IMG/VR virus record: IMGVR_UViG_2718217787_000009 | Reading direction: 5' to 3' (one strand) | Origin: a virus | Taxonomy: Duplodnaviria; Heunggongvirae; Uroviricota; Caudoviricetes | Length of the DNA stretch: 57,395 nucleotides | Shown here: positions 3,001 through 6,000 of the stretch, in pieces | How the letters are laid out: every line of letters starts with the position of its first letter | How positions within the stretch are numbered: the first letter of the stretch is position 1 | Position numbers: made by a program

Positions 3001-6000
3001 GCGCATCTCTGCCTGAATTTCGGGCCATTTGGCACCAGGCTTACATTTATGCTTAACCCACCCGATGGCATGCAGCTTAAGCTCCGGATACATAGCGTTA
3101 ACTTCTGGCATTTTCATCAACGCTTCAACGATATGGCCGTCGAATGTTGCCATGTCTTCCTGCAACAATTCCTGTGCGCTAATCACCATATCAACAGTGA
3201 TGTTTTCACATGTGTCGAACTTAACCATGACAGCGTTCTGTACTTCAGGGGCCAGGTTGTCAAAAGTGACGTTCATCGGATCGGATTCAGTCTCGACCGG
3301 GACAAAGGAAGCAGACGCCTCATCCCAGCGGTTTTCCTGCATATATTCAGCATCCCAGGAATCGAGGGCAGGGCGGGGTATACCGGGTTTATCCTCGCAA
3401 ACAAGAAATTTATAAGCGCAGTCCTGAGCAGCCGGATAATGTTCCAGGAATTGCCAGTGAAATTTTGCGCGGGCGCGACGTTCATCACCGGCTTCAATGG
3501 CAGTGGCTACAGCGACGGCACCTTCTTCCTTTATTGCCTGTTCGTCCGGAATGGCGGCGCAAATAAAGACTTTACTCATTTTGTTTTACCTCATTACAGA
3601 TTTAAGGGTGAACAAATCCCTGCCATTGCTGGCATATAAGAATGAAATCGGATGTTTATTACGGAACTGTTTTAAAGACCTGCCGGGATTTCGTTATTAT
3701 CCTGGTGAATAACTTTATCGACCGGGTAACAGTTACCGGGAATTTTCTGTTCGGTTGCTGCAGTCACACACTCCTGCATTGTCCTGTGAACACTGACTGC
3801 AATATCAACTGGCTCTCCGGAAACAAGAAAAACTGTCAGAACAAGTGCAAATGCTGTATTCATTGCCAGCATCCTTTTTGTATCGGACGTAAACGGGCCA
3901 GCATTGAAAGAATGCATATTTTATTTAATAGCTCCCGTTCGTGTTTTCTCTTGTTAATGGCATCTTCAGTAAATACAGGGTTACTGATAGTGACACCAAT
4001 TTCAAAACAACCTTCAGACGTATTAACGTTTGGTAATAACGTTTCCATTATCGCGTCCTCAACAATGAATTTTGTGATGCGGTGCCTGGTGCCTCCAGGT
4101 GACGTTAACCAGTTAACAATTAACGCCGGATACAGAGAATCCCCCCATAACACTGTTTTTGGTTTTAACTGTTCCGCGTGCGCTCAGCCGCATTCACCGC
4201 ATCACAAAATTCACTTTAAAAAGGGCGGCAGAGCAGTCACGGAGTAAAACTGATACCGCCAAACGTCACCAGAAAATTGATAACAGAGGGCGTTGCAGCG
4301 GGGTTGTCACTTAAGCGTATGGTCAACCTGACAACCCGGTGTCCTCAACGGGGGAAGGAATAACCCCTCCATACTTACCGCCGCGCCATTTCGCGGATTG
4401 CCACAACCGGAAGCGCACGGTCGACGAAAATTTAACGACAGGCTATCTATGAACCAGCTACCTCGCCGTGCGCTTTCGCGTTATGGTCTGACTTTTCAGG
4501 GAAATATCCTTTCAGTAAACTGTCAGTGCCGTATGCTCACCCGTGTCCGGCGCACGCACTCCACCTCACCCGTGGAGAACTCCTTAATTACCAACCTTAG
4601 CTTCGTTGGTTAGCTATTAACGCGGGTATGTAATCATTCTGGCAATGCTTAATGCCGCTGCTTTTTCCAGATTGGTGATATCCTGCTCCAGAGCGGACAG
4701 ATTTTCAGCCTGCTTAGCCCTGGCTTCATTGGCCCATTTCAGATCCTGCGCTGCATTAATTTTCTGGTGCATCCACTCATAAAGTTCATCATCGGTATAG
4801 TCTGGCGCGATGATGACGGGTTCTCGTTTCTGCATGTCGGCTCCTTGTGGTTAGCGTTGCCTGCTTTTAACCACGTCAGGCGAGGTGGTATCCTCTGAGG
4901 GGTCTGTTACTCGAGAGGAAATTGGTTATGAATACAATCAAGTTTTCTTGCCCAGAATGTGGTGGCGAAGTCTTTGACACATCCTTTAAGCCGCAGGGCT
5001 CTGACAGTTTCGCGGGAGCCATCTGCAAAAATTGTGGTCACCTTGTAACTGAAGATGAGTCCTCGCAGTTCGATGACGAAATCGTTGACAATATCTTCGG
5101 TGCACTCACCAGAGACTTTCTGAAGTAAAGGCGCATACCGCTTAGTTACCGCTCTGATAACTCTTACCTGTCCTGCAATGGCGCTGATGTCAATATAAAG
5201 CGCCATTGCTGCTTCTTTGCCGATCCCGGGATGCCTTCCATTCTGATGTTTGACTTCGCCCACTGAGAAACCCTCTGTTTCCCCTTAACGCCGGGGTAGC
5301 GGAACAAAAAACTGCTGCATAGTTATTAAAGTTGAACCCTGCCGTCATGTTCATACGCCTCGGGCTGGCTACTTAACCCCTGACCACTGCCGGGTAACTC
5401 GAAGTATTTCCCTGCGTTCTGTGGGGCGGGGTGGGTTGGTATTTTTAGTTTAATAAACATTAAACTTAAGTCAAGTAAAAACTAAACCGCGGGACATAAC
5501 AAACACAACGCTTTTGATAAAGTCGTTGCGGTTGTTATGTTTCTATTGGTAGTGAAAGTTAGGGAAACTGGCGTCTTGCGTGGATCACGTTTACTACTTC
5601 AACGCTTGATGTTGTTACGCGGTATAGAATTATATAGTTAGGGTGGGCTACAATCTCACGCAAGCCAGGTACTCTGTCGCTTGGTGGGTATAAATACGGA
5701 TGTTCGGATAACGGCAGCACACAACCCCTTAATCGCTGCCATAAGCGTTCAGCCGCATCTATGTCGAAACGAGCAATATAACTAGTTATATCATCTAGGT
5801 CGGTATCTGCGCTTTCAAGCCATAACACGGGTAACATTTTACTGCTTGCTCCGTTCCTTGCGCATCTTAGCAAAGCGTTCTGCCATTCTGCGCTCAACTT
5901 CGTCATGGGGAATTGCTGGGCGCGGATCTGCAAGGCTCGTTGCTACTTTCGCACGCAGCCATTCGTTGTAACTGTTTTCTTGTTCAATGGTTTCAAATTC

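Follow-up and report, generated by a model that had tools for sequence, protein, structure and literature searches.

The early-left position of lambdoid prophages has been noted to carry kil and/or dicB (PMC8630535), and the closest described system for the locus considered here is the dicBF operon of the Qin prophage of Escherichia coli K-12 (ydfABC-dicF-dicB-ydfD-ydfE), a cassette that has been under study since about 1990. In K-12, the small RNA (sRNA) DicF represses the translation of ftsZ, and the DicB protein indirectly prevents FtsZ polymerization (PMC5069750); experiments attribute to DicB both a MinC-dependent block of FtsZ-ring formation and an inhibition of ManYZ (PMC5069750, PMC8835842), and a further study reports that DicB confers protection against ManYZ-using phages (PMC6832061). 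The third product, YdfD, causes lysis and binds IspG, and its lytic activity is suppressed by DicB (PMC8835842). DicF is derived from a polycistronic transcript, the longest detected form of which ends beyond ydfD, with RNase E giving rise to the 53-nucleotide (nt) form and RNase III to a 190-nt precursor, and it accumulates in stationary phase without prophage induction (PMC10448788); a 72-nt form with a 3' end made by RNase III is known from earlier work quoted in PMC5069750. The prophage copies of E. coli O157:H7 have also been published and tied to virulence regulation, with four dicF copies in enterohaemorrhagic E. coli (EHEC; strains Sakai, EDL933, and 86-24) and with DicF regulating pchA and stx2A (reviewed in PMC7873438). 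Here, we analyze a dicF-dicB-ydfD locus on the minus strand of IMG/VR virus record IMGVR_UViG_2718217787_000009 (Caudoviricetes; 57,395 nt, hereafter the window), together with the structured RNA that fills its dicF-dicB spacer.

With high confidence, we regard the locus at 3672-4275(-) as a known Qin-type dicBF host-takeover cassette, residing in the cryptic lambdoid prophage Sp12/CP-933P of E. coli O157:H7. A 1.3-kilobase stretch holding the module is 100% identical in many O157:H7 genomes, including those of Sakai (prophage Sp12) and EDL933, in which the element is named CP-933P, is stated to be identical to Sp12, and is termed cryptic (PMC8630535); the RefSeq records annotate its integrase as a pseudogene. 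The locus is one of the four published O157:H7 dicF copies (Sakai, EDL933, and 86-24). The non-coding RNA table of EDL933 lists DicF_1 to DicF_4, of which Z6077/DicF_4, on the plus strand at 2.326 Mb of an older assembly, has the most RNA sequencing reads of the four (PMC5331693); judged only by strand and approximate position, it is probably the copy under study. The module is present in 4755 of 5426 complete E. coli genomes, at a median of two places per genome, and occurs in phage genome records as well (Tritos, mEp460, and vB_Eco phages), one of which annotates DicF. The dicF-dicB-ydfD module, including the multi-copy dicBF loci of Sakai and EDL933, is already published, and there is nothing new in the finding itself; what is new is confined to the dicF-dicB spacer, which is a conserved pseudoknotted RNA missed by annotation.

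A sequence-only reading of the window had placed here a DicF-like sRNA with a terminator hairpin, a 62-residue DicB, and a 63-residue YdfD-like protein, and its limits proved exact: the stop codon of ydfD marks one end and the 5' end of DicF the other, with all features on the minus strand (Table 1). The covariance-model search for DicF that had been named beforehand as the check returned, in a scan of the whole window at curated thresholds, a match to Rfam RF00039 at 4223-4274 that covers the full model (positions 1-52 of 52; 76.7 bits with a gathering score of 48; E = 3e-15). The sRNA is identical to K-12 b1574 at 53 of 53 positions, with 0 matches in 100 shuffles, and its predicted fold is a terminator hairpin followed by UUUUU. 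Its predicted duplex with the K-12 ftsZ leader spans -29 to +11 and reaches -30.9 kcal/mol, compared with about -21 for shuffles (RNAduplex with ftsZ -30 to +12 as the target, a 160-nt target having given very large loops); between 7 and 17 of 1000 shuffles equal this energy, the target being the ftsZ leader of K-12. DicB matches Pfam PF05358 over profile positions 1-62 of 62 (E = 1.8e-37; 127.3 bits; gathering score 27) and is identical to K-12 DicB at 54 of 60 aligned residues, while YdfD matches its DUF1482 profile and shares 59 of 63 residues (94%) with K-12 YdfD; the dicB stop codon and the ydfD ATG overlap as ATGA. By analogy with K-12, this DicB would act through MinC and on ManYZ, and this YdfD would bind IspG and cause division-dependent lysis. 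The earlier description of the whole as a cell-division inhibitor module suits DicF and DicB, whose action against FtsZ is established in K-12, if indirectly for DicB (PMC5069750), but does not suit YdfD, which is an IspG-binding lysis protein (PMC8835842).

Between the ATG of ydfC and the beginning of the exonuclease gene, the locus is about 96% identical to K-12 Qin, and the similarity ends about 15 nt upstream of that ATG. The gene order from ydfC to ydfD is the same, and the terminator, both RNase III-type stems, and the ATGA overlap are kept, with two substitutions in the 19-base-pair (bp) stem merely turning G-C into G-U pairs. A distance of 190 nt from the DicF 3' end (4223) leads back to 4412, within the 3' arm of the 13-bp stem in the ydfC-dicF spacer, and the 3' end of the 72-nt form, counted from the DicF ends, maps to 4204, which belongs to the 5' arm of the 19-bp inverted repeat, so that the processing sites fit both stems. 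With about 97% identity allowing the transfer from K-12, the 13-bp stem is probably the RNase III site that sets the 5' end of the 190-nt DicF precursor. Beyond the shared segment the two prophages differ: where Qin has dicA-ydfA-ydfB and is controlled by DicA/DicC, this one is without ydfA and ydfB and has a PaaR2/YdaS switch with embedded paaA2-parE2, the upstream genes being an opposite-strand zinc-ribbon gene, minus-strand genes for a ParE toxin, a PaaA2 antitoxin, and a CI-like repressor, and the plus-strand genes ydaS and ydaT. Downstream of ydfD follow an exonuclease gene (823 residues), which is intact here and an IS2-disrupted ydfE pseudogene in K-12, then xis and the integrase pseudogene.

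This layout bears out the placement of the module in an early-left operon at the kil-equivalent position, in keeping with PMC8630535: it lies on the repressor strand, downstream of the repressor and of an operator-bearing promoter of the PL933P type, and is followed by recombination, xis, and int genes, as in a lambdoid PL operon. The -35 and -10 elements of the published PL933P are identical to those of PR933P, and the promoter has three OL operators and is repressed about 100-fold by PaaR2 or YdaS in gfp fusions (PMC8630535); its position in window coordinates would be that given in Table 1. The hexamers TTGACT and TAAACT recur in a rightward promoter-like site at 6462-6491(+), and all four GTTTAGT half-sites of the window are confined to these PL and PR sites. 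In operon position and in outcome, namely a block of FtsZ-ring assembly, the cassette resembles lambda kil and Rac kilR; unlike Kil and KilR, however, DicB acts through MinC according to the literature and has no sequence relationship to either. A Pfam search of DicB at E <= 0.01 matched the DicB family alone and revealed no Kil/KilR homology, and fetched KilR sequences were visibly unrelated. Because only PF05358 was matched, DicB is analogous to lambda Kil and not homologous to it, the likeness being positional and functional only.

The point that the sequence-only reading did not contain concerns the 174 nt between dicF and dicB, which are a conserved structured RNA and not an inert spacer. 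There is almost no doubt that this is a genuine, structured RNA. Its elements are, in order, a closing stem P1, a stem P2, the 5' strand of a pseudoknot, a variable P3, P4 (the loop of which carries the 3' strand of the pseudoknot), and P5; P1 is extended to a perfect 19-bp inverted repeat with arms at 4195-4213 and 4066-4084, and a 301-nt region here folds with z = -4.9. Ten copies from phage records show invariant loops and compensatory stem changes in alignment, and a pattern scan of viral contigs found at least 147 copies at a minimum of 120 loci, with at least 95 distinct cores. In a MAFFT alignment of 51 representatives (A3), the covariation of the proposed structure, in which P1, P2, P4, and P5 are common to the family, is 0.309 versus 0.147 shuffled, a value that 0 of 500 shuffles reach, with slid controls at 0.07-0.14. 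The covariance model built from A3 (R1) scores 82.9 bits on this copy, which is in its seed, and 77.6 bits on the K-12 spacer, which is outside it; R1 finds exactly two copies in the window and, among the matches listed, 130 copies in 100 loci. Since the plain MAFFT columns for P4 and the pseudoknot were out of register (55-58% paired), a permutation test and a model-based realignment were used. In the model-fitted alignment (A4), which favors the structure by construction, 95.5% of cells are paired versus 76.1% shuffled, covariation is 0.514 versus 0.164 (slid controls 0.04-0.14), and all eight P4 pairs vary on both sides. In the alignment-free test, comprising 34 distinct loops, the longest complementary run that the junction of a copy forms with the loop of the same copy averaged 7.06 nt, versus 4.92 +/- 0.20 nt for permuted partners, with 0 of 20,000 permutations reaching the observed mean; a pseudoknot joining the post-P2 junction to the P4 loop is thereby supported. 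The structure is placed on the dicB sense strand because G-U pairs are frequent. A protein-coding spacer, in the form of a 97-residue GTG-initiated extension in the dicB frame, was ruled out by the non-triplet indels and compensatory base-pair changes among family members.

The spacer is a diverged, sub-threshold member of the STnc100 family. A permissive Rfam search aligned it to the full STnc100 model (RF02076) at 39.7 bits (E = 4e-7) without reaching the gathering score of 47, and eight further copies of the leader class described below score 34-44 bits, all under that cut-off; standard annotation therefore misses them. The spacer shares with STnc100/PasD the closing stem, the GGUGAAU junction, P2 with a UNNGC loop, P4, and an invariant P5 (CCNGG-AGGCA-CCNGG) followed by CACC, and intermediates link the two classes. 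It differs from STnc100 in its sub-threshold scores, in being without a terminator of its own, in the lengthening of P1 to about 19-28 bp, and in standing directly before a start codon, and the pseudoknot is not in the consensus structure line of the Rfam family. The STnc100 literature covered here gives no established function and no link to dicF, dicB, or kilR; Faubladier and Bouché (1994), which lies outside this coverage, may have noted sequence shared upstream of kilR.

When phage records were searched for distant matches to the dicF-dicB region, the matches fell into nested classes, namely dicF plus spacer, spacer alone, and, in P1-family phages, the core alone. The element ends about 20 nt ahead of kilR in Rac-type and Shiga toxin (Stx) phages, so that kilR is preceded there by the same STnc100-like leader as dicB is here, and it precedes tciA/terB in P7 and D6. 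Among the copies listed, to which the following counts refer, 35 make up a leader class with a P1 of about 19-28 bp and the start codon of DicB, KilR, or TciA no more than 40 nt away; a terminator-like hairpin within 120 nt accompanies 0 of these 35, versus 52 of 93 canonical copies. The closing stem of the canonical class is short, and its members may occur in arrays, flanked by a Q gene, a PR'-like promoter with tR', and lysis genes. All 23 DicB leaders are accompanied by a full DicF, and KilR leaders mostly by a diverged, sub-threshold DicF-like RNA; in two Rac-type loci (L006, 1490-1544; L010, 1452-1506) this DicF-like RNA lies directly upstream of the kilR leader, with Rfam scores of 41 and 34 bits (gathering score 48). 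The layout of sRNA, leader, and toxic gene may be older than the pairing of DicF with DicB.

Several further observations on the family were made along the way. Same-strand arrays of four or five STnc100-family copies about 250 nt apart occur at L109 (4376-5463, with 8376-8519) and L022 (2322-3354); most of the L109 copies have an intrinsic terminator after them, and this array is bordered by a Q-like gene (with PR'-like promoter and tR') on one side and by holin, endolysin, and Rz genes on the other. The window itself has a canonical STnc100 at 15233-15405(+), aligned by Rfam without most of the model's 3' terminator hairpin, which stands after TciA/TerB-like and ECs_5733 genes (about 14639-15231) and before the large ECs_2262 gene, with transfer RNA genes at 14209-14455; the related element is thus found after a tciB-like gene here versus before tciA in P1-family phages. 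The idea that P7 TciB is a YdfD homologue, which would have made a leader-X-YdfD unit, was dropped, as BLASTP gave no alignment. An E. coli-type dicF/leader region was also found in Aeromonas phage AP1 (MT713136.1; 98% identity) and Actinobacillus phage vB_Apl-pPE4 (L009; 82% identity), in the latter among Rac-like neighbours (a DicA-like repressor, YdaT, Kil, and exodeoxyribonuclease VIII); these unexpected hosts suggest contamination or a mis-assigned host.

Taken in sequence, the operon may be envisaged to work as follows. Once the operators of PL933P are free of the CI-like PaaR2 and the Cro-like YdaS, transcription would proceed leftward through ydfC and the structured spacer that follows it into dicF. 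To judge from the identity to K-12, RNase E would set the DicF 5' end and the intrinsic terminator the 3' end of the 53-nt form, while RNase III would yield the 190-nt precursor and the 72-nt form; DicF, with Hfq, would then pair with the ftsZ ribosome-binding site and other mRNAs, as is established in K-12, and with pchA in EHEC. Transcripts that read through the terminator would, again as established in K-12, carry dicB-ydfD, translationally coupled through the ATGA overlap; DicB would block the FtsZ ring via MinC and phage DNA entry via ManYZ, and YdfD would inhibit IspG and lyse dividing cells, a lysis that DicB would restrain. The extended P1 coincides with a mapped RNase III site, and its cleavage, on thermodynamic folding only, is predicted to separate DicF from the dicB mRNA and to expose the dicB Shine-Dalgarno sequence. 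In unprocessed transcripts, partition-function folding pairs this sequence with one of two partners, CCUU in the 3' end of DicF or CCUC a short way upstream of DicF, and its probability of being unpaired rises from about 0.2-0.3 in precursors to 0.75-0.8 without the P1 5' arm (18 dicB leader variants). By class, the change is from 0.29 to 0.75 for dicB, from 0.47 to 0.29 for kilR, and from 0.24 to 0.25 for tciA; the idea that all leaders of this class mask their ribosome sites was rejected, as the kilR and tciA leaders show no unmasking, and was kept as a hypothesis for dicB only. In the dicBF operon, the spacer RNA would accordingly be modelled as a switch gated by RNase III, in which the formation of the DicF 3' end is coupled to the unmasking of the dicB ribosome site. 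For the class at large, we tentatively suggest, at somewhat less than an even chance, that a pseudoknotted STnc100/PasD relative has come to serve as a portable 5' leader of mutually unrelated, host-toxic early genes (dicB, kilR, and tciA/terB), with a cis-regulatory or processing role not described before.

Against such a cis leader stands the view that the spacer RNA is a trans-acting, Hfq-dependent sRNA, as STnc100/PasD is treated in the literature, which RNase III sets free from the transcript. Canonical members do stand alone with their own terminator in the 52 copies mentioned and form tandem arrays between tR' and lysis genes, a preprint (10.64898/2026.05.13.724894) speaks of STnc100/PasD seed regions and targets, and the element would be excised if the long P1 were cleaved in both of its arms. 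We nevertheless hold this rather unlikely for the leader class, every member of which lies close to a DicB, KilR, or TciA start codon and none of which has a terminator; terminator loss and start-codon proximity therefore indicate a cis relationship, and four helices, a pseudoknot, and invariant loops exceed the needs of a typical base-pairing sRNA. A further alternative is a processive antiterminator acting on RNA polymerase, like put of HK022; an N-like gene is not evident in this early-left operon, and two adjacent 3' hairpins with one unpaired base between them are loosely put-like. We give this very little credence, as the element is downstream and not upstream of the DicF terminator, and put RNA has a different architecture, in which two stems and a triplex are formed by about 70 nt (PMC9378689). 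Homology to HK022 put was discarded after a search that found no STnc100 match at E <= 1 in the HK022 early region and no R1 match in the whole HK022 genome.

The host-takeover reading of the cassette as a whole competes with the proposal that it is kept mainly for the benefit of the lysogen, DicF serving as a regulator of virulence and metabolism (activation of pchA and the locus of enterocyte effacement, repression of stx2 under low oxygen) and DicB as a means of superinfection exclusion through ManYZ, with the division block being a side effect of over-expression. We grant this an appreciable, if minority, share of the probability: the prophage is cryptic with an integrase pseudogene, the four EHEC copies of dicF regulate pchA and stx2A (PMC7873438), DicB protects against ManYZ-dependent phages (PMC8835842, PMC6832061), and DicF accumulates in stationary phase without induction (PMC10448788). 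Phage genomes, however, carry the module at the same early-left position, which fits the phage's own program too, and the two proposals are compatible, with sequence separating neither from the other. That the copy is instead a silent relic, intact in sequence and without useful expression in Sp12/CP-933P, or with an inactive DicB variant, is improbable. The prophage is defective, both switch proteins repress PL933P (PMC8630535), the DicB substitutions cluster at the C-terminus, and dicF is absent from the RefSeq annotation, yet the open reading frames are all intact, the ATGA coupling, ribosome-binding site, terminator, and both processing stems are kept, the 1.3-kilobase stretch is invariant across many O157:H7 genomes, and the probable corresponding copy, DicF_4, has RNA sequencing reads (PMC5331693). 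Several points nonetheless weigh against the takeover cassette with its gating leader as we have drawn it. The evidence for this particular copy is its sequence, and the mechanism would be carried over from K-12; DicB differs from its K-12 counterpart at 6 of 60 aligned residues, three of them near the C-terminus, and its activity is assumed. About 600 nt, with the opposite-strand gene ECs_2282, separate PL933P from ydfC, and transcription from PL into dicF is presumed. The repression of PL933P by both PaaR2 and YdaS leaves no obvious switch-on conditions, and the DicF_4 reads are not uniquely assignable among identical dicF copies. The predicted masking, finally, is purely thermodynamic and holds for neither the kilR nor the tciA leaders.

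Table 1. Coordinates of the dicBF locus and its control elements in the window
Feature	Position	Strand	Details
PL933P-type early-left promoter	5474->5447	(-)	TTGACT-16-TAAACT (promoter scan); GTTTAGT operator half-site 5481-5487
ydfC, 72 residues	4617-4835	(-)	First gene of the segment common with K-12 Qin; RefSeq "protein YdfC"
Upstream 13-bp stem I2	arms 4466-4478 and 4408-4420	(-)	ydfC-dicF spacer; inverted-repeat scan
dicF sRNA, 53 nt	4223-4275	(-)	Single-stranded 5' part, then terminator hairpin; U-tract 4218-4222
STnc100-family structured RNA filling the dicF-dicB spacer	4066-4213	(-)	Lies within the spacer of 174 nt
dicB, 62-residue cell-division inhibitor	3860-4048	(-)	Shine-Dalgarno GAGGA at 4056-4060
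ydfD, 63-residue lysis protein (DUF1482)	3672-3863	(-)	Pfam PF07358, E = 3.7e-25, 88 bits, gathering score 25
Weak hairpin with U-rich tail	3621-3634	(-)	Between ydfD and the exonuclease gene; terminator-like site scan

The surroundings of the cassette add a few observations. Upstream, the paaR2-paaA2-parE2 toxin-antitoxin/repressor unit at 5559-6485(-) and the divergent ydaS-ydaT constitute the published bistable immunity switch of CP-933P, and the zinc-ribbon gene (CxxC...CxxC; ECs_2282 family) lies at 4922-5128(+), between PL933P and ydfC, on the opposite strand; leftward early transcription must therefore pass antisense through it. A 54-residue open reading frame on the other strand (ECs_5735, 4449-4613(+)), inside the ydfC-dicF spacer and over the upstream RNase III stem, is annotated in the RefSeq record of Sakai but not in those of EDL933 and K-12, and is probably not a real gene. 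At the distal end, the weak hairpin listed last in Table 1 is a possible end of the ydfC-dicF-dicB-ydfD transcript. The exonuclease (1108-3579(-), 823 residues) begins with MSKVFIC like the K-12 ydfE pseudogene, has a C-terminal Rv2179c-like 3'-5' exoribonuclease domain (E = 3.6e-66), and appears to be the intact form of ydfE. Farther away, a hok/sok-type locus at 11119-11293(+) matches the Rfam sok antitoxin RNA at 116.9 bits.

The finding is of use for annotation, as RefSeq annotates dicB, ydfD, and "protein YdfC" at this locus and has no feature for dicF. The spacer RNA is part of a phage RNA family that is widespread, has a conserved pseudoknot, and is currently treated as a plain small RNA, the leader class being missed at the Rfam threshold. 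If the proposed role is true, the operon would consist of three functional RNA and protein effectors plus a cis-regulatory RNA, rather than of an sRNA, a spacer, and a protein; and if the element gates dicB, kilR, or tciA, it would help to explain how lethal prophage genes stay silent yet inducible, with its stem and pseudoknot offering a defined handle.

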